Source: Dehalococcoidia bacterium
Lineage (GTDB): Bacteria; Chloroflexota; Dehalococcoidia; GIF9; UBA5629
Length of the DNA: 64,000 nucleotides
NCBI GenBank assembly: GCA_003142375.1
Contig: PLME01000020.1
Coordinates: 42,765-106,764 of the forward strand
Reading direction: 5' to 3'
The notes below the pieces were generated by a model. It searched no databases. It saw only the letters and a list, made by a program, of their open reading frames with translations, and was not told where the DNA came from. A program made the translations under genes and the position numbers. The number at the start of each line of letters is the position of its first letter. Within the stretch, counting starts at the first letter, position 1. Positions 12,241-63,104 of this stretch are shown here, piece after piece.

Positions 12241-13269
12241 ATGAAGACAAGAATTACCGAACTCCTTGGAATTAAGCATCCCATCGTCCTCTCAGGAATG
12301 GCCTTTGTCAGCCTGCCCGAACTTGTGGCGGCTGTCAGTAACGCAGGAGGGCTGGGTATTTTCAACAGCGTAGCCAACACGCCGGACCAACTAAAAGGAA
12401 TTATACAACAGATAAAGTCACTGACCGATAAGCCTTTTGCTATCAACGCCACTCTGATATTCCCCAACGGCAAGGAAAACGCCGAGGTTGCCCTGGCTGA
12501 GAAAGCTCCCATTATCAACTTCGCACTGGGAAAAGGCGATTGGATCATCAAAGGGGCACACGCCTACGGAGGCAAGGTCATATCTACCGTTGCTACGGAA
12601 CGTCATGCCATCAGGGCTTCGGAACAGGGAGCGGATGCCCTAATCGTCACAGGCCACGAGGCCGCCGCGCACGGCAGCGATGTGGGAGGATTGGTGCTGC
12701 TTCCCCAGATCGCCAGCAAGGTGAAGACACCAATAATTTCGGCGGGCGGCTATTGCGATGGACGTGGATTGGCGGCAGCGCTGGCCCTGGGCGCTGATGC
12801 TATTGCTATGGGCACGCGTTTTGTCTTAACACAAGAGTGCACCGTACATCCCCACATTAAACAGGTGGCCTTGAAAACCACTATGGAAGAGACTATATAT
12901 TCGGCTGGCATCGACGGCCTTCCCGGCCGCTGGTACAGCAATAAACGGGCTTTGGAAATGGCAAAAGGCAAGACATCCTACATCGAGGCCATGAAAGCAG
13001 GATGGGCACTGCGTAAACAGGTAGACATCCCCATCTGGAAACTGCTATTCGGCAGCCTGCAGAAAAGGGGCGTCACAGAGCTGGCCCGGCAGGCTATCGG
13101 CATCGATGCACTGGGCAAAGTGCTGAATGACGGAGATCTCGACAACGGGGTCGTGCCCTTCGGACAGGTGGTAGGTCGCATCGAAAGTCTGGCTACCTGC
13201 AAAGAAGTCATCGAAAGTATTGTGGCCGAAGCCGAGGCAGTTATTCGGTCGCTTCAGGGCAAAGTATAG
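12241..13269 (+). CDS. Nitronate monooxygenase / FabK-like FMN oxidoreductase (paralog 3)
   Basis: Carries ITELLGIKHPIVLSGM, NAGGLGIF and ISAGGYCDGRGLAAALALGADAIAMGTRF. A GGAGG lies upstream of the ATG. Confidence 0.85.
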   Translation: MKTRITELLGIKHPIVLSGMAFVSLPELVAAVSNAGGLGIFNSVANTPDQLKGIIQQIKSLTDKPFAINATLIFPNGKENAEVALAEKAPIINFALGKGDWIIKGAHAYGGKVISTVATERHAIRASEQGADALIVTGHEAAAHGSDVGGLVLLPQIASKVKTPIISAGGYCDGRGLAAALALGADAIAMGTRFVLTQECTVHPHIKQVALKTTMEETIYSAGIDGLPGRWYSNKRALEMAKGKTSYIEAMKAGWALRKQVDIPIWKLLFGSLQKRGVTELARQAIGIDALGKVLNDGDLDNGVVPFGQVVGRIESLATCKEVIESIVAEAEAVIRSLQGKV

Positions 13270-13396
13270 TTAAATGAGGCGGTAAGGTTGGTGCCATAAG
13301 AATTGACCTCTGTTCGAGCGTATTAATCGAATATGCTAATATTGTATTGAACTGTAATGCCGTTTAACTGTACGTATTAGTAACAAGGAGCTCAAA

Positions 13397-16123
13397 ATGG
13401 TGACGGGTTTGGATGACAAGAGCATTGAGAAATACTCGGTTACAGTTGCTCTAAAAGATGGCTCCAGCTTGATCCTTCGCCCTATTCAATTATCCGACGA
13501 GGAGAAATTGCTGGGGCTCTTCAACCGTTTAAGCAAGCAGACTATGTACCTGCGCTTCCATCACGTCCTCAATAACATCACGCGTGAGGAGGCACACCGG
13601 TTCTGCGCGGTAGACTATTTCAATACATTTGCACTGGTCTGTACCCTGGGCGAAGACGAAGATGAGAAAATTATCGCGGTGGGACACTATGCCCGCCAAC
13701 CCGGCGCCGAACGGGCTCAAATCGCCTTCGAAGTTGAAGATAAGTTTCAGGGACTGGGGATCGGCACGCATCTATTGGACCAGCTTGCCAATGTGGCCAG
13801 GGATAAGGGCATCACCAACTTCGAAGCGGAAGTGCTGGCTGAGAATAAAGACATGATGAATATTCTCATTAACAGCGGCTTCAAGATGCATCGCATGTAC
13901 CAAGGATCGACCTATGTCGGCATACTTGATCTGGCCCCGACTGAAATAGTGGAGCAGAAATCGTTCGAGCGCGAGAGGGTATCCTCCGTAGCATCTCTAC
14001 GGGCATTCCTGAATCCCAAGTCCGTAGCTGTCATCGGTGCTTCACGCCGGCGCAACACCATCGGCAATTTTGTCTTCCGCAATCTTATCCAGCAGGATTT
14101 TAAAGGTGTTGTATACCCGGTCAACCCATTCGCCGAAGTAATCGCAGCCGTAAAGGCCTATCCCTCAGTTCTTGCCATACCGGGAGACATCGACCTTGCC
14201 ATTATCTCTGTCCCGCAGGAACATGTGCAGCAGGTCGCCGAGGAATGTGCCCGCAAAGGTGTCAAGGGCATGATCGTTATGACCTCCGGATTTTCCGATG
14301 CAGGGTCTGAAGGAGCCGAAAGTGAGCACAAGCTTTTAAAGACCGTTCGCAGCTATGGCATACGTATGCTGGGACCAAACTGCATGGGCATCATTAATAC
14401 CAACCCTGAAATAAACCTTAACGCTACTTTTTCCAATGTGTTCCCTCCTCACGGGACAATTGCCTTCGCCTCGGAAAGCGGCGTGCTGGGTTCGGCCATC
14501 CTCATGTATGCTACCAACTTAAACATCGGCCTCTCCACGTTTGTCAGTATCGGTAACCGCTCCGATATATCCAGCAATGAGCTGCTGCAATACTGGGAAG
14601 GGGACCCTGATACCAACGTAGTCCTTCTTTATCTGGAATCGTTCGGCAACCCCCGTAAGTTTACTAGGGTCTCCCGCAGCATCACTTCCAAAAAGCCTGT
14701 CGTGGCAGTAACAGGAGACCGTATTGCACACCAGATCAGGTCCATAACTTCGCAGACCGGCGCTATGGCCTCCGACCAGGCTGCCACGGACGCCCTTTTC
14801 AAACAGGCGGGTATATTGCGCGTTAATACGCTGGCGGAACTCTTCGACACCGGCAGCGTGCTTGCCAATCAACCACTGCCAGCCGGCAACCGGGTTGCCA
14901 TCATCTCCAACGCCGGCGGACCTGCCCTGTTGACCGCCGATGCCTGCAAGATCAAGGGGCTGGATATGACCAAGCTTTCCGAATATACGCTGGCTAGGCT
15001 GACCACCATCCTATCCCCCAAGGCCATTATTTCCAACCCCATAGATACCTCGCCCGAATATACTATCGACCAATACCGGGAGGCGCTCCGCTTGCTTCTG
15101 GACGATGAAAATGTGGACATAGTAATTGCCATTTTCATACCTCCGATACTGGAGCTTTCCGACGAATTTGCGTCGGTTATCCGTGAAATTGCGCCCCTTT
15201 ACCGTCACTTCGGCAAGCCGCTGATAACCTCCTTCCTCGGCCTGAGCGGTGAGAGGGTTGAGCTGGGCTCCAAAGAGAAGGGATACGTACCTTCTTTTGC
15301 CTTCCCCGAGGCAACAGCCGGTGCATTATCCCGGGCATTTGAATTCAGCCAGCGATTGAAAAAACCGGTCGGTAAAATCCCTGAATTCCCCGATATCGAC
15401 AAGGAACGCGCTGAATATCTGATTAAGTCGGCCCTGGAGAAATCGGATAACAACCAGGTGTGGCTGAATGCAGAGCAAATTACAGGCCTGCTCGAATGCT
15501 ACGGAATAAAAATGGTCACGCTGAAACTGGCTACGACAGCGGCAGAAGCTGTGGAGGCAGCCGAAGAGATAGGCTGCCCGGTGGCAATTAAAATTCTATC
15601 TTCAGCCGTCTCACAAAAGATGGAACTGGAAGGAGTTATACTCGATTGCCGGGCCGGAAATGAGGTGGAAGACGCCTTCAACCGCATCAGCGATAATATG
15701 GAAAACATAGGCAAGAAGGAACAGATGGACGGCGTGATCGTCCAGAAAATGGTGCAGGGAGGCATAGAGGTTATCGTCGGCGTTACGCAGCACCCCGCCT
15801 TCGGCCCTCTGATCATGTTCGGCCTTGGGGGCATTTATACGGAGTTGCTCAAAGATGTAACCTTTAACATCAACCCGCTCACCGATATCGATGCACATGA
15901 GATGCTCAGGGCGGTGAAAGCCTACCAGATGCTGGAAGGGTGGAAAGGCTCAAAGCGCGCCGACATTGAATCCATCGAGGAACTGCTTCTGCGTGTTTCC
16001 ACCATGATCGTAAACCATCCTCAAATTGTGGAGATGGACCTCAACCCGGTTAAGGTGTTGCCGGAAGGCAACGGGTATCAGGTTATCGACAGCCGCATCC
16101 TGATAAGCGCTTATACTGAATAG
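13397..16123 (+). CDS. GNAT acetyltransferase fused to NDP-forming acyl-CoA synthetase (CoA-binding + ligase-CoA + ATP-grasp); Pat/PatA-like protein acetyltransferase candidate
   Basis: The N-terminal GNAT has QGLGIGTHLL. It is followed by a CoA-binding domain (VAVIGASRR), GPNCMG, and a C-terminal ATP-grasp (GCPVAIKILS...). Total length is 908 aa. Confidence 0.8.
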   Translation: MVTGLDDKSIEKYSVTVALKDGSSLILRPIQLSDEEKLLGLFNRLSKQTMYLRFHHVLNNITREEAHRFCAVDYFNTFALVCTLGEDEDEKIIAVGHYARQPGAERAQIAFEVEDKFQGLGIGTHLLDQLANVARDKGITNFEAEVLAENKDMMNILINSGFKMHRMYQGSTYVGILDLAPTEIVEQKSFERERVSSVASLRAFLNPKSVAVIGASRRRNTIGNFVFRNLIQQDFKGVVYPVNPFAEVIAAVKAYPSVLAIPGDIDLAIISVPQEHVQQVAEECARKGVKGMIVMTSGFSDAGSEGAESEHKLLKTVRSYGIRMLGPNCMGIINTNPEINLNATFSNVFPPHGTIAFASESGVLGSAILMYATNLNIGLSTFVSIGNRSDISSNELLQYWEGDPDTNVVLLYLESFGNPRKFTRVSRSITSKKPVVAVTGDRIAHQIRSITSQTGAMASDQAATDALFKQAGILRVNTLAELFDTGSVLANQPLPAGNRVAIISNAGGPALLTADACKIKGLDMTKLSEYTLARLTTILSPKAIISNPIDTSPEYTIDQYREALRLLLDDENVDIVIAIFIPPILELSDEFASVIREIAPLYRHFGKPLITSFLGLSGERVELGSKEKGYVPSFAFPEATAGALSRAFEFSQRLKKPVGKIPEFPDIDKERAEYLIKSALEKSDNNQVWLNAEQITGLLECYGIKMVTLKLATTAAEAVEAAEEIGCPVAIKILSSAVSQKMELEGVILDCRAGNEVEDAFNRISDNMENIGKKEQMDGVIVQKMVQGGIEVIVGVTQHPAFGPLIMFGLGGIYTELLKDVTFNINPLTDIDAHEMLRAVKAYQMLEGWKGSKRADIESIEELLLRVSTMIVNHPQIVEMDLNPVKVLPEGNGYQVIDSRILISAYTE

Positions 16124-19586: not shown

Positions 19587-20699
19587 TTACCGCGTCATCA
19601 GCGGTTGACCCTGATATTTGATGGAAAGTATCTCATTTTCAGCCTTAGTCACAGCCCCGGGTGCCAGGCTGGCATAGGTGAGAGCTTGGTTATACTGCTG
19701 GCCATCGTGAATTGCCCACCACAGCATCTTGACCAGCGCCTCACCCTTGGCCTTGTCTGTCTGGTTGGCATAGGCCAGTATCCAGGTGAAGCCTACGATG
19801 GGATAAGCATCGGGATTGCTTGAATTGGTCAGCATCAGTTTCATATCGTCAGGCAGAGAGACACCTATGGCAGCACTGGTTGTGGCCGCTAGGGAAGGTT
19901 CTATATAATTGCCGGCTGCGTTTTTAAGCTTGGCCCAGGGCATTTTATTCTGCACCGCATATGCCAACTCAACATAGCCCATGGAATTAGGTACCTGCTG
20001 CACCTGTCCGGCCACCCCTGCACTGCCCTGACCGCCAATACTATCACTGGGCCATTTTACCGCAGTGGCATTGCCTATCTGGCTGCTCCAGTTTGGGCTA
20101 ACCCTGGAAAGATAGTTCGTGAATATATAGGTGGTGCCGGAGCCATCCGAACGGTGAACGACGGCTATTGCAGCATCCGGCAATTTCAGATCCGGGTTGA
20201 GGGCTGCAATGGCAGGGTCGTTCCATTTGATAATCTTCTTCAGGTAGATATTTGCCAGTACATCGCCGGTCAACTTCAATTGGCCGGAGCCGATTCCTGC
20301 CAGGTTATAGACGATGGCAACTGCGCCGCTGGTCATGGGTATGTGAAGTATATGCCCGTGTTTGACTTCCGCTATTGCGGTCTGGTTGTCAGACATAATT
20401 CCATCGCTGGCGCCGAAATCGACGGTGCCCTCCGTTATCTGACTGATGCCACCTCCTGAGCCGATGGGCTGATAGTTGATCTTTACCCCGGTTAATTTAT
20501 TGTACTCATCAAACCATTTGGTATACAGGGGCGCCGGGAAAGTTGCACCGGCTCCAGTGAGGTTGACTGACTTGGCGAGGGTTGAAGGCTGATTTGCGGA
20601 CGGCGTTGTAGTAGGAGCAGCCGGACCGCAGCTTGCCAGGACCGCGGCTGCCAGCACAAGCGCCGCAAGGACAACGAACCATTTTTTGATGCTGTGCAA
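19587..20699 (-). CDS. pstS: Phosphate-binding protein PstS (lipoprotein-type signal)
   Basis: Has the PstS motifs GAGATFP, YQPIGSGGG and RSDGSGTT. The start is moved to the TTG at 20699 (AAAGGAG 8 nt upstream). The track ATG at 20735 sits directly on the predicted -10/TSS after the Pho box and has no RBS. Confidence 0.85.
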   Translation of the reverse strand: MHSIKKWFVVLAALVLAAAVLASCGPAAPTTTPSANQPSTLAKSVNLTGAGATFPAPLYTKWFDEYNKLTGVKINYQPIGSGGGISQITEGTVDFGASDGIMSDNQTAIAEVKHGHILHIPMTSGAVAIVYNLAGIGSGQLKLTGDVLANIYLKKIIKWNDPAIAALNPDLKLPDAAIAVVHRSDGSGTTYIFTNYLSRVSPNWSSQIGNATAVKWPSDSIGGQGSAGVAGQVQQVPNSMGYVELAYAVQNKMPWAKLKNAAGNYIEPSLAATTSAAIGVSLPDDMKLMLTNSSNPDAYPIVGFTWILAYANQTDKAKGEALVKMLWWAIHDGQQYNQALTYASLAPGAVTKAENEILSIKYQGQPLMTR

Positions 20700-20755
20700 A
20701 TTTTTATCTCCTTTATAAATTAATTTCTCTGTCATCCAATTACAAGTTTAGGGCA

Positions 20756-20799
20756 TAGAGATAAAAAGCAGGTTAAACCAATGTTAAATTTCGATTAAA
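20756..20799 (-). promoter_or_regulatory. Pho box: four 11-bp-phased direct repeats (TTTAAT/TTTAAC/TTTAAC/TTTTAT) upstream of pstS
   Basis: The minus strand reads tttaatcgaaa|tttaacattgg|tttaacctgct|ttttatctcta, followed by tgcccTAAACT (-10-like). This is the PhoB/PhoP-type direct-repeat architecture. Confidence 0.7.
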
Positions 20800-52754: not shown

Positions 52755-53801
52755 TTATGCCAGCAAATCTATAGCTTCAAATATCTCATCGGCTGTGAGC
52801 GGCACGCCGCCCCAGGAGTTCACCAGTTTGATCTCGTTGCGGTTGCCCACTGCAATGCGGACATCCTCTACCATCTGCCCGGCGCTCATCTCGGCTACCA
52901 CGAATTTGCAGCCCCGACCCGCCAGGTCAGAAAGCGGCTGGTAGGGGAAGGGCAGCACCGTGATCGGCCTCAAAAGACCGACCTTTATCTTATGCAGCCG
53001 TGCTTTCTGCATGGCGGTCATAGCCGAGCGGGCCACGCTGCCATAGGCCACCAGTACGATATCGGCATCTTCCAGTTCAAGGCCTTCATAGCGGACCTCA
53101 TTGCGCTTCATCCTCTCGAATTTCTGCAGGATCAGTTTGATCCTGGCAGGATGGTCCATGGGATTCATTTCGAACGAGTTGATTATATTCTTGGGCCTTC
53201 CGGCTGCGCCGGTGATGGCCCATTTCTTCTCGGGCAGTTTCTTGACACGGTCTCTTATCACGACCGACTCGACCACCTGGCCCAGGAAGCCGTCGGCCAT
53301 AACCAGCACAGGGTTGCGGTATTTATCGGCCAACTCGAAGGCCAGCATGGTATAGTCCAGCATGTCCTGCACCGATGAGGGCGCCAGCGTTATCAGGTAG
53401 TAATCGCCGTGACCGCCGCCCCGCGTGCACTGCATATAGTCGCCCTGCGCACCGCCGATGTTGCCCAACCCGGGACCGGCACGCATGATATTGGCAATCA
53501 CCGCCGGTATCTCCGAGCCGGCCATGTAGGAAATGCCTTCCTGTTGCAGGCTGAAGCCGGGGCTGGAGGTGGAGGTCATGGAGCGGAAGCCCGCTGCGGC
53601 TGCGCCGTAAACCATATTGATGGCAGCCAGCTCGCTCTCGGTCTGAAGGAAAATCCTATCTTCCTCGGGCATACGTTTGGCCATATGCTCAAGCAGGTCG
53701 TTCTGCGGTGTGATGGGATAGCCAAAATAAGCGCCGCATCCGGCGAGGATGGCGCCTTCAGCTATGGCAATGTTACCCCCCATGAGGGTTCTCTCAGGCA
53801 A
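52755..53801 (-). CDS. 2-oxoacid:ferredoxin oxidoreductase, alpha subunit
   Basis: Has N-terminal GN.AIAEGAI.AGC..YFGYPITP and the pyruvate-flavodoxin oxidoreductase core pattern. Confidence 0.9.
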   Translation of the reverse strand: MPERTLMGGNIAIAEGAILAGCGAYFGYPITPQNDLLEHMAKRMPEEDRIFLQTESELAAINMVYGAAAAGFRSMTSTSSPGFSLQQEGISYMAGSEIPAVIANIMRAGPGLGNIGGAQGDYMQCTRGGGHGDYYLITLAPSSVQDMLDYTMLAFELADKYRNPVLVMADGFLGQVVESVVIRDRVKKLPEKKWAITGAAGRPKNIINSFEMNPMDHPARIKLILQKFERMKRNEVRYEGLELEDADIVLVAYGSVARSAMTAMQKARLHKIKVGLLRPITVLPFPYQPLSDLAGRGCKFVVAEMSAGQMVEDVRIAVGNRNEIKLVNSWGGVPLTADEIFEAIDLLA

Positions 53802-53828
53802 TAAACGGCTCCTTGATGATTAAACCGG

Positions 53829-54092
53829 TCAGGATGTTGTATCGTCGTCCGGACTGCTGCGGTGATATATGGTGATGGCAAGGTCGGGGCACATGATGGC
53901 ACAGGCCTTGCACCCGGTGCAAATGAAGGCTTTTTCCGCAATCAGCTCGGCGTAATTGACCCCGAAGCGGTTGATTTCTTTAGATATCCCGATTATTTCC
54001 CGGGGACATACCGAAACACAGTAGAGGCAGGCCTTGCATTTGTCTTTCTCAATGACGATGTAGTTTGTTTTGCGGCTCTCAGATATCAACAA
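53829..54092 (-). CDS. 2-oxoacid:ferredoxin oxidoreductase, delta (2x[4Fe-4S] ferredoxin) subunit
   Basis: Has CKACLYCVSVCP and CTGCKACAIMCP motifs and is the first gene of the operon. Confidence 0.85.
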   Translation of the reverse strand: MLISESRKTNYIVIEKDKCKACLYCVSVCPREIIGISKEINRFGVNYAELIAEKAFICTGCKACAIMCPDLAITIYHRSSPDDDTTS

Positions 54093-54189
54093 TTCATCTC
54101 ACCTTCAATCTAATACAAAAAAAGCGCAATGCAAAAGATATTTTACACGTAGAATGATTGCAAGTCAATAGGCGTAGTTTTTTAGGTCA

Positions 54190-54239
54190 TTTCATCAAAA
54201 TTTCATTTTCGTTTAATGATTTTTTCATTTTCATAAGTT
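54190..54239 (+). promoter_or_regulatory. Island promoter element copy A: four 11-bp-phased direct repeats plus a -10-like TAAGTT
   Basis: Reads tttcatcaaaa|tttcattttcg|tttaatgattt|tttcattttca|TAAGTT. It is near-identical to the copies at 57523 and 60601. Confidence 0.65.
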
Positions 54240-54569
54240 AGAGTGGTTCTTAGAAACAATATATTAGCTATAGGAATATCATACACAAGGTGGGAAGAGG
54301 AATCTAATGGTCATCTCATTTTTCGTTACGGAGTTACATATTTGCGCAATTCCGTAAAACTATCAATTCGCACTTTGCCATCTCTAATCAATGGTACTTA
54401 TTTCGGTGAAAAAATGAGTAAGGAACGAAAAAGACGATGATTGCAAACGAGAGTTTGTATTTATCCTACGGAGTGTTGCAAGTGGACTAAATTGGGCCCC
54501 ATTTTCGAATAGGATGGGGCATATAAAAACTCGGTTAAAAAGTTTTTTATATTTAATAAGGAGTAATTG

Positions 54570-55676
54570 ATGAGAAAAGGTAATCATTTTTATGGCAGAA
54601 CAGGCATCGTGATAGCAGTATTACTACTATTGATTACAGTTATTTTGCCTAGCAATATTCAGGCTCAAACATTAGATACGCATGATGCTTACATTTACCC
54701 AATAAATGGTGGAACACCAAGATGGCAAGCTTTTACAACTCATGATGAAATGCTAAAAGCCTGTCAAATACCCGAAGGTATACTAAGTACGATGTCTACC
54801 TCAGGTTTAGTAGAAACAGTTTTAAATTATCCCCTATATGAAGACTGGCTAGCATATGATAGTCCACAACAAGGTTTTGAAGCAATTGAGAGCCAATTCA
54901 ATGGTCTCTCAGAGCTCATGCAACGCACTGATGCAGGATCTGAACTACTATCGCAGTATCAAGATACTAAGGTGCTAGACATAAAAGACTCAATAAATGT
55001 GGTGACAAAAAATGATCCTTTCAGCGTCGCGAATATTGAACTAATCTTAATCCAAGATAAGATCCTGAGCGAATTGACACAAACTCAAATGAATAGTCTT
55101 GTAAATGCAGCCAGAATAAAATATCAAGCTAAACAGCAATCAGCAGTATACGGACAATTCAATTTAGAAATTACTTCCAACCTAATTGAGCAGACATCAC
55201 AACGGTCTCACTCATCACGAGAATACAATAGTTATGTGTACACCCCTCACGGCACCGCAGTATCAGTTATAGTTGATCGAACTGAAATGTCTCAATCAGA
55301 AAAAAATGCCGACATTGCTTGGGTACAAACATATTATCCTAATGCAATGATTGTAAGTGGACCCACAAATAAATATAATTGTCATTCTTATGCCTGGTAT
55401 TACCAGTCATCTTCCAATATTGACTGGATGAATGATCCAAGTGCATACTGGACTGATGGAAGTTATACACAAATTTACAATTATTACTCTGATGGGACTA
55501 AAATGCGATATGTGAACGGAGCGCATTCTGCAATTGTGTCTACATATTACCGAGGACCCTATACACCCCCTTATGATTACTATACGACTATTTCTAAGTG
55601 GGGAGCTCTTTGCCTAGTAAGACATTGGGCAAGTTATTGTCCCTATAATTCTTCCCCAATCTATTATTACCATTAG
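54570..55676 (+). CDS. Secreted two-domain protein: N-domain paralogous to the 56624..57418 product, C-terminal Cys-His domain (YNCHSYAW...AHSA...SKWG)
   Basis: AAGGAG lies 6 nt upstream of the ATG at 54570, and there is a signal/anchor helix. The N-domain DAYIYPINGGTPRWQAFTTHDEMLKACQIPE...GLVETVLNYPLYEDWLAY is about two-thirds identical by eye to the neighbouring gene. The C-domain blocks are shared with the 43299..44717 protein. Confidence 0.7.
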   Translation: MRKGNHFYGRTGIVIAVLLLLITVILPSNIQAQTLDTHDAYIYPINGGTPRWQAFTTHDEMLKACQIPEGILSTMSTSGLVETVLNYPLYEDWLAYDSPQQGFEAIESQFNGLSELMQRTDAGSELLSQYQDTKVLDIKDSINVVTKNDPFSVANIELILIQDKILSELTQTQMNSLVNAARIKYQAKQQSAVYGQFNLEITSNLIEQTSQRSHSSREYNSYVYTPHGTAVSVIVDRTEMSQSEKNADIAWVQTYYPNAMIVSGPTNKYNCHSYAWYYQSSSNIDWMNDPSAYWTDGSYTQIYNYYSDGTKMRYVNGAHSAIVSTYYRGPYTPPYDYYTTISKWGALCLVRHWASYCPYNSSPIYYYH

Positions 55677-55690
55677 ATACTAAATTTAAA

Positions 55691-55739
55691 CTATGGAAGC
55701 TGCTGTAATACAATAGTTTTTTTCAGGCAGCTTCCATAG
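55691..55739. terminator. Bidirectional terminator hairpin between convergent island genes
   Basis: ctatggaagctgc ... gcagcttccatag, with a T-run in the loop region. Confidence 0.6.
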
Positions 55740-55803
55740 AATCAATTATCTTATAAGCAACGGCCTACTTGCATAAAGGAGGGAAGGGAGTATAGCAGAT
55801 TAT

Positions 55804-56613
55804 TCAATGGGATAAATTAATTATTTCAATTTCCCCCTTGTGATTATCTATGATATTGGGATGCTGTGGAGAAGGCGGTGGGTAATTCTGGAACTCAATT
55901 GCAATGTCTTTTTTAACAAAGGTATAAATTTCTTCGATTGAAACCTCGCCATCATTATCAATATCCACATTATTTAAGTGGTCAAATGAATTCAAAATAT
56001 AATATGTGAAAATTCCATGTTCATACTTTTTTTCTTGCCAACATTTTTCGTTCCCCATCCCACCAGTAAGTATTACTCGATTTGTACCACTAATTTTAGT
56101 ACCATAGTTTCCACTTTCGCAGGAATCCAATAGGATAGTGATATTATTCGTGTCTAAATCATCTAGCCAAGTATTTAAATCCTGGTAACCAATATCATTG
56201 CAATTAGAATTCTTTAATGAATCATACATTTCTAGGAATGCAGAATTCCCATGCCCCGCAAAAAATAACAAGACTGTGTCATTTTTCTTCTCTTTAGGAT
56301 TTAACCATTCAGCTATAGCCATTTTGATGTTTTCTTCAGTGGCATCCGAATCAACAAGTGTCTTGATATGATCATAACCAAAAAAGTATTCTAGTTGTTT
56401 TGAAATAGCTAAAGCATCCTTATTTGCATAACGAGTATCTACATCCAAGTATTTATAGTTACCTATCCCAATTATTATCGCCCATTTGTTGGACTGACTT
56501 AAGGAATCAGTTTGTATTTGAAAACGATCAGCTAAGCCGGTAATAAGACAGAGGCATAAAATTAATCCCAAAGTTATCAATAAAAAAACACAAATATTTC
56601 TCTTTGTTATCAA
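55804..56613 (-). CDS. Secreted/anchored clan CD (caspase/legumain-like) peptidase with C-terminal EF-hand
   Basis: KWAIIIGIGNYKY is followed by His-Gly in LLFFAGHGNS and Cys in ILLDSCESGNYG. There is a canonical 12-residue EF-hand loop DIDNDGEVSIEE and an N-terminal hydrophobic helix. Confidence 0.75.
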   Translation of the reverse strand: MITKRNICVFLLITLGLILCLCLITGLADRFQIQTDSLSQSNKWAIIIGIGNYKYLDVDTRYANKDALAISKQLEYFFGYDHIKTLVDSDATEENIKMAIAEWLNPKEKKNDTVLLFFAGHGNSAFLEMYDSLKNSNCNDIGYQDLNTWLDDLDTNNITILLDSCESGNYGTKISGTNRVILTGGMGNEKCWQEKKYEHGIFTYYILNSFDHLNNVDIDNDGEVSIEEIYTFVKKDIAIEFQNYPPPSPQHPNIIDNHKGEIEIINLSH

Positions 56614-56623
56614 GTGTTTTTTC

Positions 56624-57418
56624 TCAATTCATCTGCTTCTCATTCAAATATTGTGGTGCTTGAGACAATATTAGGTTTAAGTCTGAATCATTTAAAAATG
56701 AACCGGTATCAAGGAAATGCTGGAGATCTGCGTCAGTTTGGATTATTTGCATGAAAGATACAAACTGGGCCTGTTTTAATGCTTTACCTATTACCCAGGC
56801 GGAACTTTCCATGCTACCCCAACCGTAAACACTTGGGACCTGTTGTTTAGCATGAATTTTAATCAAGCCCTGTTTAATTAAATCGTTATGCTGTGTTTCA
56901 CTAAGATTAGTCAGAATAGAATCTTGTGCGAGTAATATTTCAATATTCTGGAAACTCATGGAGTAAAACCCCCGTTTTTCCGATGACCAATCTTTCCCGA
57001 TTGCTGCAGGATCCATGGTCTTGTATCTTTCTAGAAGCTTTTCTCCGGCGTCTTTCCTATTCAACAATTCTCGAATACCATTGAATTGGGTTTCTATAGC
57101 GTCAAAACCTTGTTGTGGATAATTATATGCGAGCCAGTCTTCATAAAGAGGATAAGTTAAAACGGTTTCTACCAAACCAGTGGTCGACATCTTGTTTAGT
57201 GTAATCTCGGGTACCTGACAAGCTTTGAGCATTTCATCGTGATTTGTAAAAGCTCGCCATTCCGGTGTTCCAGGCTTTATTGGATAATCATATGCATCAG
57301 ATTTTTTAAAATTTAATGGCATCTCTGCGCAAGACATAAACACTAAGGGTAAAAATAAAAAAGCTAGTAAATAATTAAATATCCAATGCTCGGAGGTTAC
57401 TTTGCTTTTATGTCCCAT
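56624..57418 (-). CDS. Secreted (lipoprotein-like) protein paralogous to the N-domain of the 54570..55676 product
   Basis: DAYDYPIKPGTPEWRAFTNHDEMLKACQVPE...GLVETVLTYPLYEDWLAYNYPQQGFDAIETQFNG matches the neighbouring gene. The ATG is at 57418 and a signal helix ends in MSC. Confidence 0.7.
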   Translation of the reverse strand: MGHKSKVTSEHWIFNYLLAFLFLPLVFMSCAEMPLNFKKSDAYDYPIKPGTPEWRAFTNHDEMLKACQVPEITLNKMSTTGLVETVLTYPLYEDWLAYNYPQQGFDAIETQFNGIRELLNRKDAGEKLLERYKTMDPAAIGKDWSSEKRGFYSMSFQNIEILLAQDSILTNLSETQHNDLIKQGLIKIHAKQQVPSVYGWGSMESSAWVIGKALKQAQFVSFMQIIQTDADLQHFLDTGSFLNDSDLNLILSQAPQYLNEKQMN

Positions 57419-57522
57419 ATTTTCCGACCCCCCTACAATCAACTCAGATGTTACTATTAGATGCGTTATTTGTAAAGCTAAGAATATTTATCTTACGAAC
57501 AAAAAAAGATGCACTCCTATGA

Positions 57523-57572
57523 TTTCATCTAAATTTCATTTTCATTTAATGACTTTTTCATCCTGGTAAGCT
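57523..57572 (+). promoter_or_regulatory. Island promoter element copy B: four 11-bp-phased direct repeats plus a -10-like TAAGCT
   Basis: Reads tttcatctaaa|tttcattttca|tttaatgactt|tttcatcctgg|TAAGCT, 55 nt upstream of the ATG at 57627. Confidence 0.7.
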
Positions 57573-57626
57573 AAGTTATTACTCAGTAGAAGAAATCAAA
57601 GGCAATGAAAGGAGGTATCAGGCATT

Positions 57627-58376
57627 ATGAAAGTTCCAAAGGCATGTTTCAACAATGAAGCTACCACACGTGGTAAAAATCGGGGGATACTTTTCTTTGC
57701 AGTCATCAGTCTCGTTCTTATCATGAGCGTGTTATGCATTAGCCATGTCTCAGCTCAAGACGTCAAACCAGATAATGCGGTTGGTTATTATACCGAAAAC
57801 GGCAAGGTAACTTGGATCATTCCCGGACAAGGCATCGACGTAACACAGCTTGCCGGAGCGACTCCATCCATGATTGAAAAGCTATATCCCATGACTCCTC
57901 AAGCTGAGGCTGCCATAGTCCACCAGGTACCCACTTCATCGGTCATAATCGATGGCACCCTTTATCAAGCAAAACAGATTTCCCAATTCAATGGTAAACG
58001 GCTGCGCTTCATTGCCGGTAAAGATGGCACACTAAATGCCTTCACCACACCAGAAAAGTTGGAACAGTTTCAAACAGAACAATACGGAGTAGTATCCCCA
58101 CAAACCACTACGAACTCAGTATTTTATAAAGACTGGTATTATACTGGTCAGGCACTCGGACTAACTCCGGGCAATGGTCTACCCAACCTTAATCAAATAG
58201 GATTCGATAATTATATCTCGTCTGCAGTAGCTACCACGACCGGAACTTGGTCTTATATTTATGACTATGCAAATTACGGTGGTGATTACTTTGGTATGGC
58301 CAAAGGTTCAAGTTATCCATCGCTGACTATTCAAGGCTGGAATGACAGGGCCTCATCGATCTGGGTTTATCAATAA
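57627..58376 (+). CDS. Secreted protein with C-terminal beta/gamma-crystallin-fold domain
   Basis: Has a signal peptide (…CISHVSAQD). Two Greek-key-like motifs are present: FYKDWYYTGQ...GFDNYISSAV and IYDYANYGGDYF...GWNDRASSIWV. Confidence 0.65.
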   Translation: MKVPKACFNNEATTRGKNRGILFFAVISLVLIMSVLCISHVSAQDVKPDNAVGYYTENGKVTWIIPGQGIDVTQLAGATPSMIEKLYPMTPQAEAAIVHQVPTSSVIIDGTLYQAKQISQFNGKRLRFIAGKDGTLNAFTTPEKLEQFQTEQYGVVSPQTTTNSVFYKDWYYTGQALGLTPGNGLPNLNQIGFDNYISSAVATTTGTWSYIYDYANYGGDYFGMAKGSSYPSLTIQGWNDRASSIWVYQ

Positions 58377-58404
58377 TACATTTGATTGAATAAATAGATT
58401 GAAT

Positions 58405-58443
58405 GCAATGTAGGGGCATAGTCAACTATGCCCCTACATTGCA
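58405..58443. terminator. Bidirectional intrinsic terminator
   Basis: Hairpin gcaatgtaggggcata-gtcaac-tatgcccctacattgc between convergent genes. Confidence 0.8.
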
Positions 58444-58512
58444 TTGCAGATGATTAATAGGGTCAATTCAACAACCTATTTCAGCTATAGATGGTAGGAA
58501 GTTAAATAGTGA

Positions 58513-59907
58513 CTAATCCCCAGAAGCATTGGTGATAGATGGTAAAGTTACGGTAAACAAGCTACCTACGCCGACTTCGCTCTCAACTGTAATTTTACCA
58601 CCATGATGTTCAGCGATGTTTTTGCATATGGCTAGTCCCAGGCCGGCTCCGCCATCACCACGAGAATGGGTCTTATCTACCTTATAGAAGCGTTCCATAA
58701 TATATGGTATATGCTCCTGCCGTATTCCAATCCCGGTATCTTTAATGTCAATATACGCGGTGTGATTGATGCCGCTAAGAGAAATTGCTATGGCGCCACC
58801 TGCCGGAGTATAGCGAACAGCATTGTCCAGAAGATTCATAAACAGCTCTCTCAACCTTAATTCATCTCCCTTTACCATAACGCTGGGTTCCAGATTTTGC
58901 TTAAGATTTATATTTTTCGCCTCGCAAATTACCTGCATATCTGCTGCGATGTCATTGAGCAATTCCTGCAGGTTGATTTTAACGAAATTCGCTTGCCTCC
59001 TATCACCATCACTCCTCGTTAGAACCAGTATTTTTTGTACCAGTGACGACATTCGGCCAATGTCCTGCGAGATCAGTTCGAGTGACTTTCTGTATTCCCT
59101 ACTTTTCCTTGATTTGTTTAAAGCCAATGTTGCCTCTCCCTGCATAATTGCCAGCGGAGCTTTTAAACCATGCGAGGCATCGGCAGCAAATTGCCGTTCC
59201 TTATTGAATTCTCTTTGCAAACGATCAAAGGTCTGATTCAGCGTTCTGGATAATATGCCCAATTCATCGTTATTGCGTACCGGTATCCTGCTTTCTAAGT
59301 CGTTATCTCCAATCCGTCTGGCTACTCTAGTAATATCCTCAACCGGTTTCAGAAGTTTATTTGCCAGAACATAGATCATTAAACCAGCTAGAACTATTGT
59401 TATAGGAAATGCAAAAAGGAGAACTTGGCTATATGTTCGCATTACATCAATTGAATCTGCCTTTGACTGTTCAATCACAGCGACTTCATAATTAGCCGCA
59501 TTCTCTGTTGCGGATCGCCCGTAGAACCAGAGTTCCATATCCCCCGATATATCCGAAGCGACAACTTTCTTAAGGTCAATTGTGATTGGTCCATGCGGTG
59601 TGTCAATTACATAGGGGTATGTATTGCTCAATTGCATTTCCGATATTTGGTCCCGGGTCAGACTGTACGTGGCGAGGGGCATGTACAATTGATCCAAATC
59701 ATATTGATTTGCGTTTGGTATGGACGTGCTGGCGTTTGCTGAAGTGCTGGATGCCAATGACGATAGGCTTAAAGGTTCATACACCCACTGGTACAAATTA
59801 TGAGCTAATATGAAATAGCTGAATATACTGAAGAACAATAGGATGATTGCTAGAAAAAACAAGTACCACAGACCCAATTTGACTTTTATGCCGGAAGGAA
59901 AACTCAT
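58513..59907 (-). CDS. Sensor histidine kinase (2 TM + periplasmic loop + HAMP + HisKA + HATPase)
   Basis: Has the H-box ASHGLKAPLA, N-box NLLDNAVRYT and G-boxes DTGIGI / GAGLGLAI. It overlaps the response regulator gene by 4 nt. Confidence 0.85.
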   Translation of the reverse strand: MSFPSGIKVKLGLWYLFFLAIILLFFSIFSYFILAHNLYQWVYEPLSLSSLASSTSANASTSIPNANQYDLDQLYMPLATYSLTRDQISEMQLSNTYPYVIDTPHGPITIDLKKVVASDISGDMELWFYGRSATENAANYEVAVIEQSKADSIDVMRTYSQVLLFAFPITIVLAGLMIYVLANKLLKPVEDITRVARRIGDNDLESRIPVRNNDELGILSRTLNQTFDRLQREFNKERQFAADASHGLKAPLAIMQGEATLALNKSRKSREYRKSLELISQDIGRMSSLVQKILVLTRSDGDRRQANFVKINLQELLNDIAADMQVICEAKNINLKQNLEPSVMVKGDELRLRELFMNLLDNAVRYTPAGGAIAISLSGINHTAYIDIKDTGIGIRQEHIPYIMERFYKVDKTHSRGDGGAGLGLAICKNIAEHHGGKITVESEVGVGSLFTVTLPSITNASGD

Positions 59908-60575
59908 TTTGCCCTCAGCCTGTAACCTACTCCCCTTATTGTCTGGATCAAACTTTTGTGCCTATCTTCGTCAAGCTTGGTCCGTAGCTTTTTTATATAG
60001 ACATCCACAAGATTGGAACTGCTGTCCAAAGCCATGTTCCAGACATGCTGCTCCATCACCGTCCGGGTGATCACAGCATCAGGATGCCGCATTAAGTATT
60101 CGAGAATTGCATACTCCTTGCCACTTAACTCAATGCTTTTATTTCCATGGAACACCTGTCTGGTGACCGTGTCCATTACCAAGTCACCGCATATTATTTT
60201 GGACATTGTGGGGCTCTTTTCACGCCTGAGAATTGCCCTGACTCTTGCATATAATTCTTCAAAAGAAAACGGCTTAACCATATAATCATCTGCTCCACTG
60301 TCCAGTCCTATGACTTTGTCCTGTAAGGCATCTTTACAGGTGAGCATTAAGATGGGAGTACCTACCATATTTTTACGCAACGAGCGGCATACTTCTATCC
60401 CATCTTTGCCGGGCAATATGATATCCAGTATTATCAGGTCATACGGGATGCTTTGCGCTAGTATTTCTCCTTCTTCCCCTGTGCATGTTATGTCTACAGC
60501 ATACCGGTTCTCTTCGAGTCCCTGTTGAAGGAGATCGGCCATTCGCTGCTCGTCTTCAATAATCAGAATTCTCAT
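59904..60575 (-). CDS. OmpR-family response regulator
   Basis: Has a receiver domain (MRILIIEDE, ILDIILPG, KPF) and a winged-helix output domain (LSGKEYAILEYL, RGVGYRL). Confidence 0.9.
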   Translation of the reverse strand: MRILIIEDEQRMADLLQQGLEENRYAVDITCTGEEGEILAQSIPYDLIILDIILPGKDGIEVCRSLRKNMVGTPILMLTCKDALQDKVIGLDSGADDYMVKPFSFEELYARVRAILRREKSPTMSKIICGDLVMDTVTRQVFHGNKSIELSGKEYAILEYLMRHPDAVITRTVMEQHVWNMALDSSSNLVDVYIKKLRTKLDEDRHKSLIQTIRGVGYRLRAK

Positions 60576-60600
60576 ACTACAGGAGCTTTAACCAATGGAA

Positions 60601-60650
60601 GTTCATCAAATTTTCATTTTTAATTAATGATTATTTCATCTGCATAAGAT
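60601..60650 (+). promoter_or_regulatory. Island promoter element copy C: four 11-bp-phased direct repeats plus a -10-like TAAGAT, no annotated downstream ORF
   Basis: Reads gttcatcaaat|tttcattttta|attaatgatta|tttcatctgca|TAAGAT. It starts 26 nt beyond the response regulator start codon and points away from it. Confidence 0.55.
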
Positions 60651-61047
60651 AAATTGTTTTCAGGGCCTCTTACATTACAATCATCCATAAGGTTGGTTCC
60701 TACATCTCATGGCATCTTGGCAACTATCTAAGTCACAAAAATAAACTGCGCTCACCAGGTTTCAAGAAAACCTGTTGCAGAGGCTCTGCCTGCGGCGGTG
60801 GATGCTGTGCCTTCCTCCGCGGGCCCCTTATTTATCAAATAAAGACTTGCAACCATGCACGATACTATGTTATGCCCATCGCACTTGGGGCCTGCCTTGA
60901 GCTATCCTCAAAGTCGATTAACGCGGGCTCACTGAAGAGAGATTAATATTGTGAAAATCGTAAAAGCCTCTCTTATAAGGTGGTCTTCTCCTAATTTAAT
61001 ACACAGGGATTATATTTGTCAACGGACTAGGCCGCAATAGTCCTGGA

Positions 61048-62241
61048 TCATTCACTTTTAGATATGTAGCAGCCCGAGCAGACTACGTATTGCTTGCCAT
61101 CCGAGCCGGTTACCAGCTTGTAGTAAACCGATTTATAGAAAAGGCCGATTTGGCCCGGCATGGTGAAGACATAGTCCTCCCATCCAGTGCCGTCGGCCAG
61201 CGCCCCTGAGACAATGTTGTCCCTGAAAAGCTTGCCCGCCATATCCGGCACTCCTTTGAAATTGCGGCCGACCACAGCTGGGTTATCTGCGTTGGCAACT
61301 TCAACCACCTTATTATCGAAGACGTAGACGTAAAGCGCAGGGTTCTGCTTATCAAGGTAAGGAGGCTGCTGGGCATTTATTTTGGCGATGGCGCCCGGCG
61401 CGTCGGCGACTATATCGGCGGCCGTCTGATTGACCAGTTGTATGACCGTATCACGCGAAACGCTGCTGTCTGCATATTGCGGCAGGGCATAGCTGGTAAT
61501 GATCTTCTGGTAATAGCTCATGCCCCCGGCGCTATCCTCCTTCTTTAATTCATCCAGCGCTTTTTGCCAGGCCTGCACCGTGCCGTCGGGAACCTCTTTG
61601 TTAAAGGCAATATAGAAGTCGTTCCTGACCGCATATTTGGCGGCGGTGATCTCGGCGGGATTGATACCGGCCCTGTAGGCCACGAAGGGCATCCCAAGTG
61701 CCGGCCCCAGCCAGGCCTCGACCTGCCCGTTAACCAACTTCTGGATACACTGCGTGTCATTTTCGTTTATATCCAGGTTGGTAAAGCCCTGCCCGGATAA
61801 AAATACCTGGTTGGAATCGTCCTTGTAGACGGCTATAGATTTCAGTTTTTTAGCATCATCCAGTGAGTTGATAACCAGGTCCGAGCCACGCCTCGTGTAG
61901 AAATAGTTATCGTCGAAGCCGATGGGACCGACCCATTTAAAAAGGTTCTCGCGGGAGGGCAAACGCGTGGTGGAATACAGCACTGCGCCCGGTTCTTTCT
62001 GAGCCAGCTCATAACCCTGCGACCAGGGCATAAGCTCGATAGAAGCATCGCTGCCGGTCTTCCTCAATATCTGGCGGACGATCTCAGTGGACTGTCCCGT
62101 AATAGTTCCCTTTTCATCGGTAAAATTATAGGGCGGATTATCTTCGGTGATGATGCGCAGTTTGGGGGCTGGGATATTGACCACGCAGCCCGACAGCAAT
62201 ATCAGGACGGCCAGCACCAGACCCATTACATTCTTCAACAT
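61048..62241 (-). CDS. Lipoprotein with family-3 solute-binding domain fused to a Cache-like sensor domain
   Basis: Has a lipobox (LLSGC). The N-terminal half resembles the SBP_bac_3 pattern (PPYNF.D..G...G...E......). The C-terminal half is Cache-like (YVYVFD..V.VAN......G.NF....D..G.....................GW.DY.F.....). Assignment is by eye. Confidence 0.6.
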   Translation of the reverse strand: MLKNVMGLVLAVLILLSGCVVNIPAPKLRIITEDNPPYNFTDEKGTITGQSTEIVRQILRKTGSDASIELMPWSQGYELAQKEPGAVLYSTTRLPSRENLFKWVGPIGFDDNYFYTRRGSDLVINSLDDAKKLKSIAVYKDDSNQVFLSGQGFTNLDINENDTQCIQKLVNGQVEAWLGPALGMPFVAYRAGINPAEITAAKYAVRNDFYIAFNKEVPDGTVQAWQKALDELKKEDSAGGMSYYQKIITSYALPQYADSSVSRDTVIQLVNQTAADIVADAPGAIAKINAQQPPYLDKQNPALYVYVFDNKVVEVANADNPAVVGRNFKGVPDMAGKLFRDNIVSGALADGTGWEDYVFTMPGQIGLFYKSVYYKLVTGSDGKQYVVCSGCYISKSE

Positions 62242-62435
62242 CTTCGCCTCCCATCGGTTAGAGTTATTCCCTTGCGAATTATCGCAACATCTTCACATAT
62301 TTGCAGATTTGATATATTATAGCTAATATTGATTGACCGATTATGCAATAAGAAGTGTCCCTTCCCCCCTGTTTTAAGCCTGCCGGACTATACCGTCGGC
62401 CTAACAAAATATAACCGTATTAAGAGGATTTTGCA

Positions 62436-63104
62436 ATGACAGTAAGAAAAAAGAAGACAGTCGTGCTAAAGCCGTCGGGCAGGGGCGCCCGGCTTAACCG
62501 CACGCAGAAGGGCAAGCAGATCGCAGCCATCAGGAAGAAGCAGATAACCGGGGCCGCTTACGAGGTCATTGCTGAAAAGGGATATTACAACTTCACCATG
62601 ATGGATATCGCCAGGCGGGCCGGCGTTTCCTCCGGCCTGATACACCATTATTTTAAAGACAAGGAGAACATGCTTGTAACACTTCTCAGGGAAATGCAGC
62701 AGGACATCCGCACTTCACTGGAAAAAACCATCGAGCACGTGCCCGACCCGGCTAAAAAACTGGATATATTCATGGACCAGGCCTTCGACCTGGTGATCAA
62801 GGAAAGGGAATACGTCTACGTAACCTACGATTTTATGACCCAGATCAAGTTCAATGAACGTATGCAGCGCATCCTCAGTAAGCTATACCGCGGCTACCGC
62901 GAAACGCTGGAATCCATCCTCAAGGAAGGCAAGCAGAAAAAGAAGTTCAAGGATGTAGATGAGCATTACCTGGCCACCGTATTTATCTCGATATTGCTGG
63001 GTTTTGAACAGCAGTACATCCTTGACAATACATCGTTCGACTACCGCTCCTACACCAGGCGCATCAAAGACTATATGTTCAGCCAGGTGCTGATCAAGAA
63101 ATAG
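62436..63104 (+). CDS. TetR/AcrR family transcriptional regulator
   Basis: Has the N-terminal HTH pattern FTMMDIARRAGVSSGLIHHYFKDKE. Confidence 0.85.
   Translation: MTVRKKKTVVLKPSGRGARLNRTQKGKQIAAIRKKQITGAAYEVIAEKGYYNFTMMDIARRAGVSSGLIHHYFKDKENMLVTLLREMQQDIRTSLEKTIEHVPDPAKKLDIFMDQAFDLVIKEREYVYVTYDFMTQIKFNERMQRILSKLYRGYRETLESILKEGKQKKKFKDVDEHYLATVFISILLGFEQQYILDNTSFDYRSYTRRIKDYMFSQVLIKK

Follow-up and report, generated by a model that had tools for sequence, protein, structure and literature searches.

Probable promoter arrays of four 11-bp-phased repeats in a Dehalococcoidia island and their association with an OmpR/PhoB-family response regulator

Genes of the island

The window analysed here is a stretch of 64,000 nucleotides from a Dehalococcoidia bacterium, a placement also given by the database names of related proteins and by exact look-ups. 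It contains an island with a GC content of 36–42%, against ~52%, which is bordered by a 2-oxoacid:ferredoxin oxidoreductase operon on one side and by an SBP_bac_3/sCache gene on the other. A two-component system is encoded on the minus strand of the island. The gene of the sensor histidine kinase (HAMP-HisKA-HATPase_c; 58513..59907) overlaps by 4 nt that of its cognate response regulator (RR; 59904..60575), which consists of a receiver and a winged helix (Response_reg and Trans_reg_C) and is the proposed binder of the arrays described below. The assignment of this RR to an OmpR type in the original prediction holds for the OmpR/PhoB family, although among curated subfamilies CopR/CusR is closer than PhoB or OmpR proper. 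The RR matches TIGR01387 (CopR/CusR/CzcR subfamily) best, with 256 bits against a cut-off of 279, and it is not a PhoB orthologue, as it scores 208 bits against TIGR02154 (PhoB), for which the cut-off is 296.

Three array copies, A, B and C, lie on the plus strand of the island. As predicted, A and B are located upstream of the secreted-protein genes at 54570 and 57627, the products of which both carry signal peptides. The gene behind copy A (54570..55676, plus strand) encodes 368 aa from the ATG at 54570, the listed ORF of 369 aa starting from the TTG at 54567. The 369-aa protein has no Pfam match, and its N-terminal domain is paralogous to a 272-aa protein encoded nearby. The gene behind copy B (57627..58376, plus strand) encodes a membrane-anchored or secreted protein of 249 aa. 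The C-terminal ~90 residues of its predicted fold (AlphaFold, pLDDT 87) form a beta-gamma-crystallin domain (Foldseek E 2e-7 to 1e-5; TM 0.75–0.87 to microbial members), while the fold search gives no assignment for the N-terminal domain. Among homologues of this protein, Pfam gives only sub-threshold matches to Inhibitor_I36. None of the 60 closest relatives encodes the 249-aa protein, and thus the island, which is also absent from them, is regarded as accessory.

Copy B lies in a divergent intergenic region that is common to the 249-aa gene and to an operon on the minus strand (55804..57442), which encodes the 272-aa protein (56624–57442) and a caspase-like peptidase (Peptidase_C14; 55804–56613). 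Copy B may act on this operon as well. The 272-aa gene has a second copy elsewhere in the genome (79% protein identity; contig C5:85887–86648), and genome-wide scans found no array on that contig. Between the convergent 249-aa and kinase genes there is a perfect 20-bp inverted repeat (58402–58445), which resembles a bidirectional terminator and gave spurious microRNA matches in Rfam; a scan of 53800–62500 against Rfam yielded nothing credible.

Sequence and uniqueness of the arrays

The three arrays are found at 54190–54239, 57523–57572 and 60601–60650, letter for letter as predicted, and the exact 11-bp phasing of four units is seen in each of them. When the −10 hexamer assigned in the next section is included, the module is 55 bp long and contains four (T/G)TTCAT/TTAAT units. 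Copy A (54190..54244) is composed of the units TTTCATcaaaa, TTTCATtttcg, TTTAATgattt and TTTCATtttca (54190–54233), a 5-bp gap (TAAGT) and the −10 hexamer TAGAGT (54239–54244). Copy B (57523..57577) has its units at 57523–57566 and the −10 hexamer TAAGTT at 57572–57577, and copy C (60601..60655) has its units at 60601–60644 and the −10 hexamer TAAATT at 60650–60655. The consensus is TTTCATCnAAA for the first unit (U1), wTTCATTTTCr for U2, TTTAATGAnTw for U3 and wTTCATTTTCr for U4. Since U2 and U4 are alike while U1 and U3 differ, the array would comprise two 22-bp sites, U1-U2 and U3-U4.

The pattern TTTCAT-N5-TTTCAT-N5-TTTAAT-N5-TTTCAT, with up to three mismatches allowed, matches three sites in the window and no site in 100 dinucleotide shuffles. 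Whether further copies exist, a question raised with the original prediction, was answered by a motif search of the whole assembly (2.14 Mb, 27 contigs, GC 51%), in which only A, B and C are found at up to two mismatches; the next-best sites have five, and one of these is the Pho box of the window. A 58-column weight matrix, the training set of which consisted solely of 10 sites on other metagenomic contigs, gives 82, 71 and 55 bits to A, B and C, respectively, and 2.8 bits to the next site of the genome (genome mean −121, sd 21). Across 185,579 species genomes, the exact pattern has one match, in a Kaistella MAG, which is taken as a chance occurrence because no RR, histidine kinase or target homologue is encoded nearby. 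The similarity between the copies is confined to 40–50 bp and their flanks are unrelated, and the arrays are therefore conserved for their own sake and have not been copied with a larger segment. Segmental duplication as the origin of the three copies is ruled out by these unrelated flanks.

Position of the −10 hexamer

TAAGNT, which abuts the fourth unit, had been proposed as the −10 hexamer. This assignment is rejected, because the position is unconserved across the other loci with TTTCAT-type units, where it is occupied by TTCAA, AGGTG, GTGCA, GGGTG, AGTAT or GGGCG; TAAGNT is conserved in the lineage of the window only, and the hexamer common to all related arrays starts 5 bp downstream. 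TAnnnT is present exactly 10 bp after the fourth hexamer in all 21 arrays, which were collected with filters blind to the −10 region, against a background of 0.027 per position in the intergenic DNA of the island. Its forms are TAGAGT, TAAGTT, TAAATT, TAAAAT, TATAGT, TATGGT, TAAGCT, TATGCT, TAGGCT and TATTCT. The class II layout of the original prediction accordingly stands in that the repeats cover the −35 position, although they do not abut the −10 hexamer and end 10 bp upstream of it. If transcription is assumed to start ~7 nt after the −10 hexamer, the G of the TAAG of the window falls at −14.

The −35 position itself has 3–4 of six matches in the window copies, compared with 1–2 of six in most of the distant relatives. 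An extended −10 motif (TGn) precedes the hexamer in many relatives, including D. mccartyi, Dehalogenimonas, and a clade with TTTAAG units, and also in a paralogous system in the genome of the window (contig C2), whereas copies A, B and C have AGn there. With an extended −10 motif, as in several cultured relatives, a promoter might need no activator, and repression is therefore conceivable.

Comparison with a Pho box in the same window, which had been put forward at 20756–20799, proves valid, since this element lies upstream of pstS and has the same geometry as A, B and C. It occupies 20745..20799 on the minus strand between a phoR-like kinase gene and pstS, and consists of four TTTAAY-type units (TTTAAT, TTTAAC, TTTAAC and TTTTAT) at 11-bp phasing, a distance of 10 bp and the −10 hexamer TAAACT. 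As for the start of pstS (20690–20740, minus strand), a TTG near 20699, which is preceded by AAGGAG and followed by a lipoprotein-type signal peptide, is more probable than the ATG at 20735, which would leave almost no leader after the Pho-box promoter.

The −10 hexamer of copy B ends 50 nt upstream of the 249-aa gene, the Shine–Dalgarno sequence of which is AAAGGAGG. Copy A is ~325 nt upstream of the 369-aa gene. The intervening leader (54245–54569), which counts against the mechanism proposed below, contains a hairpin, GCCCCAT...ATGGGGC, at ~54496–54521. It matches nothing in Rfam, contains no credible ORF and is unlike the other leaders, and a blastx search against all ORFs of related loci reveals no pseudogene in it.

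Occurrence of the arrays with the regulator across Dehalococcoidia

Beside orthologous RR–kinase pairs, the same module is found in >15 lineages, one of which is Dehalococcoides mccartyi 195. RR homologues and homologues of the 249-aa protein are encoded on common contigs, from close to very diverged ones. Every array except copy C precedes a signal-peptide gene by 100–430 bp and, again with the exception of copy C, is always oriented toward such a gene or toward the gene of the regulator itself. The closest relative (L003/L004; 87–88% protein identity) has the layout of the window, with orthologues of copies B and C and three further arrays before other signal-peptide genes. Copy B is conserved there although its upstream flank is unalignable. 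The gene set differs even between the window with three arrays and this 87% relative with five, so that the operator-promoter behaves as a portable cassette. The corresponding segment of the relative (L003:26-8000, compared with 54190–57577 of the window) has five arrays and different secreted genes (a 405-aa protein of unknown function and two extra paralogues resembling the 249-aa protein), with neither the caspase gene nor the 369-aa gene; the content of the regulon turns over quickly between the two, whereas the operator is unchanged.

Where the RR is 75% identical (L011 and L012), its gene is divergent from operons of a C39-like peptidase and a serpin, and the array faces the peptidase; in L009, L010 and L013, the array stands in front of homologues of the 249-aa protein. 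Other genes preceded by arrays in relatives encode C39-like papain-fold peptidases, serpins and signal-peptide proteins of unknown function. In L011 (7616–7875 and 3849–4226) and L012 (3615–3991), all on the minus strand, the arrays are followed by a conserved leader of 100–200 nt with 75–82% identity, which ends in a strong Shine–Dalgarno sequence, AAAAGGAGGTGA, and behind which the short ORFs (3, 7 and 38 aa) are not conserved. This leader, which is absent from the window copies, may represent either a leader RNA or a small gene in decay. At RR identities of 64–67% (L033–L036), four-unit arrays precede neighbouring genes in L033, L034 and L036, and arrays of two to four units also lie directly upstream of, and facing, the RR gene, which is the classic layout of autoregulation.

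Homologues in complete genomes, including those of D. mccartyi 195 (L026) and Dehalogenimonas lykanthroporepellens BL-DC-9 (L027), have RRs that are 40–46% identical; the names of these genomes were confirmed by exact protein look-up. The distant loci always share one layout, in which the RR and kinase genes on one side diverge from a homologue of the 249-aa gene on the other, and the intergenic region contains xxTCAT units phased at 11 bp, the number of which is four or, in some lineages, two. Arrays of 4 × 11 bp stand between regulator and target in L005–L008, L026, L027 and L028, while in L029, L032, L030 and L031 the genes are arranged likewise and the array consists of two units or an inverted pair, the latter being TGTCA-N6-TGACA in L030 and L031. 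Genome-wide, a single 4 × TCAT array is found in D. mccartyi 195, as in another genome (G113), both times at the two-component locus, and three are found in Dehalogenimonas, where two of the three are in the two-component locus beside the RR and kinase genes; the reversed pattern as a control has no match in the complete genomes. The predicted conserved core target of the two-component system across Dehalococcoidia is the 249-aa protein.

Phage-integrase and transposase genes flank the module in two of the related loci (L034:610-1302; L027:4606-5616 and 12691-15108), which would be consistent with spread of the whole cassette by horizontal transfer. The genome of the window also encodes, on contig C2 (141248–144310), a paralogous RR–kinase pair, the RR of which is 56% identical to that of the island. 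This pair has two four-unit sTTCAT arrays of identical geometry with the extended −10 sequence TGT-TAAACT, the first of which is followed by a small membrane peptide and by an ORF of 166 aa containing a trypsin/HtrA-like motif; the presence of two related RRs with similar half-sites in one cell raises the question of how cross-talk is avoided. A literature search found no paper that deals with the Dehalococcoides counterpart of the island two-component system.

Covariation of half-site and recognition helix

In the clade of L005–L008, where the RR is 61% identical, the hexamer is TTTAAG instead of TTTCAT within the same architecture. These loci keep the deviant third unit as TTTAAGGACT, the window counterpart of which is TTTAATGAcT. 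Their RRs alone have NSNPN[IL]VEVY[IV]S where the recognition helix begins, compared with DSxSN..VDVYI in every lineage with xTTCAT units. Thr187 and His195 of PmrA are reported to make DNA-specific contacts (PMC3973317). The alignment of the window RR with Klebsiella pneumoniae PmrA (4S04) is gapless through residue 204, and therefore positions 187 and 195, which differ between the clades, correspond to these two residues. Position 195 is also Ser in L035, whose units are GTTCAT/GTTAAC, and is thus not diagnostic alone. Divergence in the recognition helix does not exceed that in the remainder of the RR, and the covariation, which is seen in one clade, is effectively one evolutionary event. 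This covariation of half-site and helix is supportive, not conclusive, of recognition of the arrays by the RR.

Copy C

Copy C starts 25 bp beyond the start codon of the RR gene and faces away from it. Downstream of it, no ORF, gene remnant or Rfam match is found; blastx of the following 392 bp against all ORFs of related loci detects no pseudogene, and the small ORFs present (e.g., MASWQLSKSQK) have no ribosome-binding site and are poorly conserved in L003. The array with its −10 hexamer is 84% identical to that of L003, compared with 56% in the adjacent 25 bp, ~68% in the rest of the intergenic region without end gaps and 65–75% at fourfold-degenerate sites of the flanking genes. This comparison of the window with L003 is modest evidence that copy C is under constraint.

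Relatives with the divergent layout also have unit 1 at 25–65 bp from the RR start codon, but there a target gene follows the array. The promoter of the RR gene must overlap the array or lie beyond it, and autoregulation is thus the most economical reading of copy C, which probably autoregulates the RR–kinase operon. As no gene lies downstream, copy C is only putatively a promoter, and possibly an orphan one. In the window the RR faces away from the array, whereas in L033–L036 it is downstream of the array, so that the geometry of autoregulation would differ between lineages. A minus-strand site resembling a sigma-70 promoter (TTGACA-18-TAAATT, 10/12) is located at 61022–60993, directly behind the SBP/sCache gene, and L003 has it too. 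Should this site be the promoter of the RR–kinase operon, a leader of ~410 nt would run antisense through copy C. The leaders of A and C have no similarity to each other or to the conserved leader of L011 and L012.

Proposed mechanism and alternative explanations

The PhoB-type class II arrangement is established for the OmpR/PhoB family. From the layout of the arrays, which is that of PhoB at Pho boxes, the RR is most likely a class II activator that recruits RNA polymerase, and we consider it likely that each element is a complete activator-dependent promoter bound by the island RR (59904–60575). Solved activation complexes of BasR (8JO2) and PhoP (9JI3) are among the PDB matches of this RR. 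The phosphorylated RR would bind as one head-to-tail dimer per 22-bp site, at two tandem sites (U1-U2 and U3-U4), and with a start ~7 nt after the −10 hexamer the four hexamers would lie at about −61, −50, −39 and −28, thereby covering the −35 position. Copies A and B are read as RR-activated promoters because of this PhoB-type layout and the likeness of their half-sites to those of AgrR and PmrA. Activated copy A would turn on the 369-aa secreted protein, and activated copy B would turn on the 249-aa protein with its beta-gamma-crystallin domain and perhaps influence the divergent 272-aa/caspase operon. Copy C, being so close to the RR start codon, must overlap the promoter or leader of the RR–kinase operon and would thereby most likely bring about autoregulation. 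The original prediction, an array for the OmpR-family regulator of the island in a PhoB-like class II layout, is supported by strong comparative evidence, namely co-occurrence, the fixed distance to the −10 hexamer, autoregulatory placement and covariation, all of which are read from genome sequences, as is the uniqueness of the sites. From them we infer that the RR physically binds the arrays, that it activates and does not repress, where exactly transcription starts and what copy C does.

The same RR might instead bind the arrays as a repressor (from about −61 to −23), the promoters being intrinsically active through a good or extended −10 hexamer until a signal releases the RR. Extended −10 promoters need no −35 element, and TGn does precede the hexamer in the C2 paralogue and in the relatives named above with it; moreover, at copy C, which overlaps the promoter or leader of the RR itself in the opposite orientation, a bound protein would more naturally hinder transcription. 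The window copies, however, have AGn and only 3–4 of six matches at −35, and their geometry is identical to that of the pstS Pho box of the same genome, a classic activated promoter. Related regulators of the CopR family and PmrA also activate from such a position (PMC7380067, PMC3973317), and repression is considered unlikely.

It is also conceivable that another DNA-binding protein reads the arrays, either an unrelated factor or the RR of the C2 paralogue (56% identical), and that the linkage to the island RR is incidental. Some cross-recognition could occur, given the similar sTTCAT core and the same geometry of the C2 arrays, but these score −14 bits or lower with the matrix that gives 55–82 bits to A, B and C. 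The type of array follows the adjacent RR in the >15 lineages, including genomes in which a unique array stands next to the RR, and the 60 closest relatives lack the 249-aa target together with the island; a foreign reader is thus regarded as very improbable.

An absence of any protein reader seems marginally less probable still. The T-rich, 11-bp-phased units would then be a curved UP-like element of a promoter cassette spread by duplication, for which the five copies in L003 against three in the window might speak. The best-conserved positions, however, are the TTCAT cores and not the T-runs, both phasing and TCAT core persist in relatives whose spacers are G/C-rich (TGTCATcgtct, GGTCATctccc) and would not curve, and one clade has changed two hexamer positions in all four units in step. 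Finally, iterons or terminal repeats of a mobile or plasmid-derived island, which its low GC content, its absence from the 60 relatives and the integrase or transposase genes adjoining some related loci might suggest, can practically be dismissed, because the island of the window has no replication initiator, transposase or integrase and the copies do not bracket it but stand in one orientation upstream of a gene at a fixed distance from a −10 hexamer.

Returning to the RR as class II activator, a broader picture may be drawn in which several parts are combined, and which as a whole is tentative and rather doubtful. It comprises an ancient circuit of the whole class, a portable operator, a switch of half-site in one clade and an antisense feedback at copy C. 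A dedicated two-component system with the secreted beta-gamma-crystallin-domain protein as its core target would be ancient across Dehalococcoidia, and a portable 55-bp operator-promoter would have repeatedly recruited secreted cysteine peptidases, caspase-like enzymes and serpins. The half-site would have changed from TTCAT to TTAAG in one clade via a handful of helix changes (184, 186, 187 and 191). Orphan copy C would give rise to non-coding RNA that runs antisense to the RR operon in its long leader, and convergent transcription would thereby exert negative feedback. If this picture is true, L005–L008 and the TTTCAT clade would provide a natural model of a specificity switch in the OmpR family.

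With the arrays, a two-component system that had not been characterised gains a precisely defined, testable operator and a promoter map with the −10 hexamer corrected; the system is kept from uncultured Dehalococcoidia to the cultured organohalide respirers D. mccartyi 195 and Dehalogenimonas lykanthroporepellens. In D. mccartyi 195, a four-unit array that is unique in the genome, lies beside one regulator and one target and has TAGGCT at 1,131,060–1,131,065 of the genome as its predicted −10 hexamer would make a simple test system. The predicted regulon is composed of secreted or anchored proteins (serpins, caspase-like and C39-like peptidases, and proteins with a beta-gamma-crystallin domain), and is a hint that proteolysis outside the cell is regulated in these organisms, about the surface of which very little is known. 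The sister clades with TTTCAT and TTTAAG units could help to explain how RRs of the OmpR family change their DNA specificity.

Comparison with known systems

Among solved structures, Thermotoga maritima DrrD (PDB 1KGS) is the best match of the island RR (E 2e-62, full length). We know of no binding site or regulon of DrrD, and the match therefore says nothing about the arrays.

The PmrA/BasR box consists of CTTAAG and xTTAAT half-sites 5 bp apart (PMC3973317). The window arrays resemble it (PDB 4S04, 8JO2) in being hexamer direct repeats with a 5-bp spacer. The TTTAAG units of the sister clade L005–L008 fit the YTTAAK type fully, while in the window only unit 3 (TTTAAT) does so, the other three of the four units being TTTCAT. 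PmrA has one dimer site in contrast to two here, and its function is lipid A modification, unlike the secreted proteins of the island.

The boxes of AgrR, CopR and CusR (heavy-metal subfamily; ATKACANNNNTGTMAT; PMC7380067) belong to the closest curated subfamily of the island RR. AgrR, a member of the CopR family, is a type II activator with positive autoregulation and a TGTMAT half-site (PMC7380067). Its promoter-proximal half-site matches TTT[C/A]AT of the window at five of six positions and the Dehalogenimonas unit TGTCAT exactly, and extra direct repeats in phase have been described (PMC7380067). On the other hand, the known boxes of this subfamily are 6-4-6 inverted repeats (PMC7380067), in contrast to the four direct repeats of the window, where that architecture is not found; only L030 and L031 have an inverted pair, and its spacing is different. 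The island regulon also differs from those of CopR, CusR and AgrR in that it has no metal-resistance genes, its targets being secreted proteins, peptidases and serpins.

Pho boxes (PhoB, PhoP and SphR) share with the arrays the 11-bp direct repeats, the two 22-bp dimer sites, coverage of the −35 position and an end 10 bp upstream of the −10 hexamer, as well as a nearby regulator gene and its autoregulation, which in the island is probable. They differ in the half-site, which is TTTCAT/TTTAAT in the arrays and TTAAC-type in the Pho box of the genome itself, and in the targets, which for the arrays are secreted proteins and not phosphate-uptake genes. Overall, there is good support for a new regulon of a familiar kind, the mechanism itself being a textbook one.
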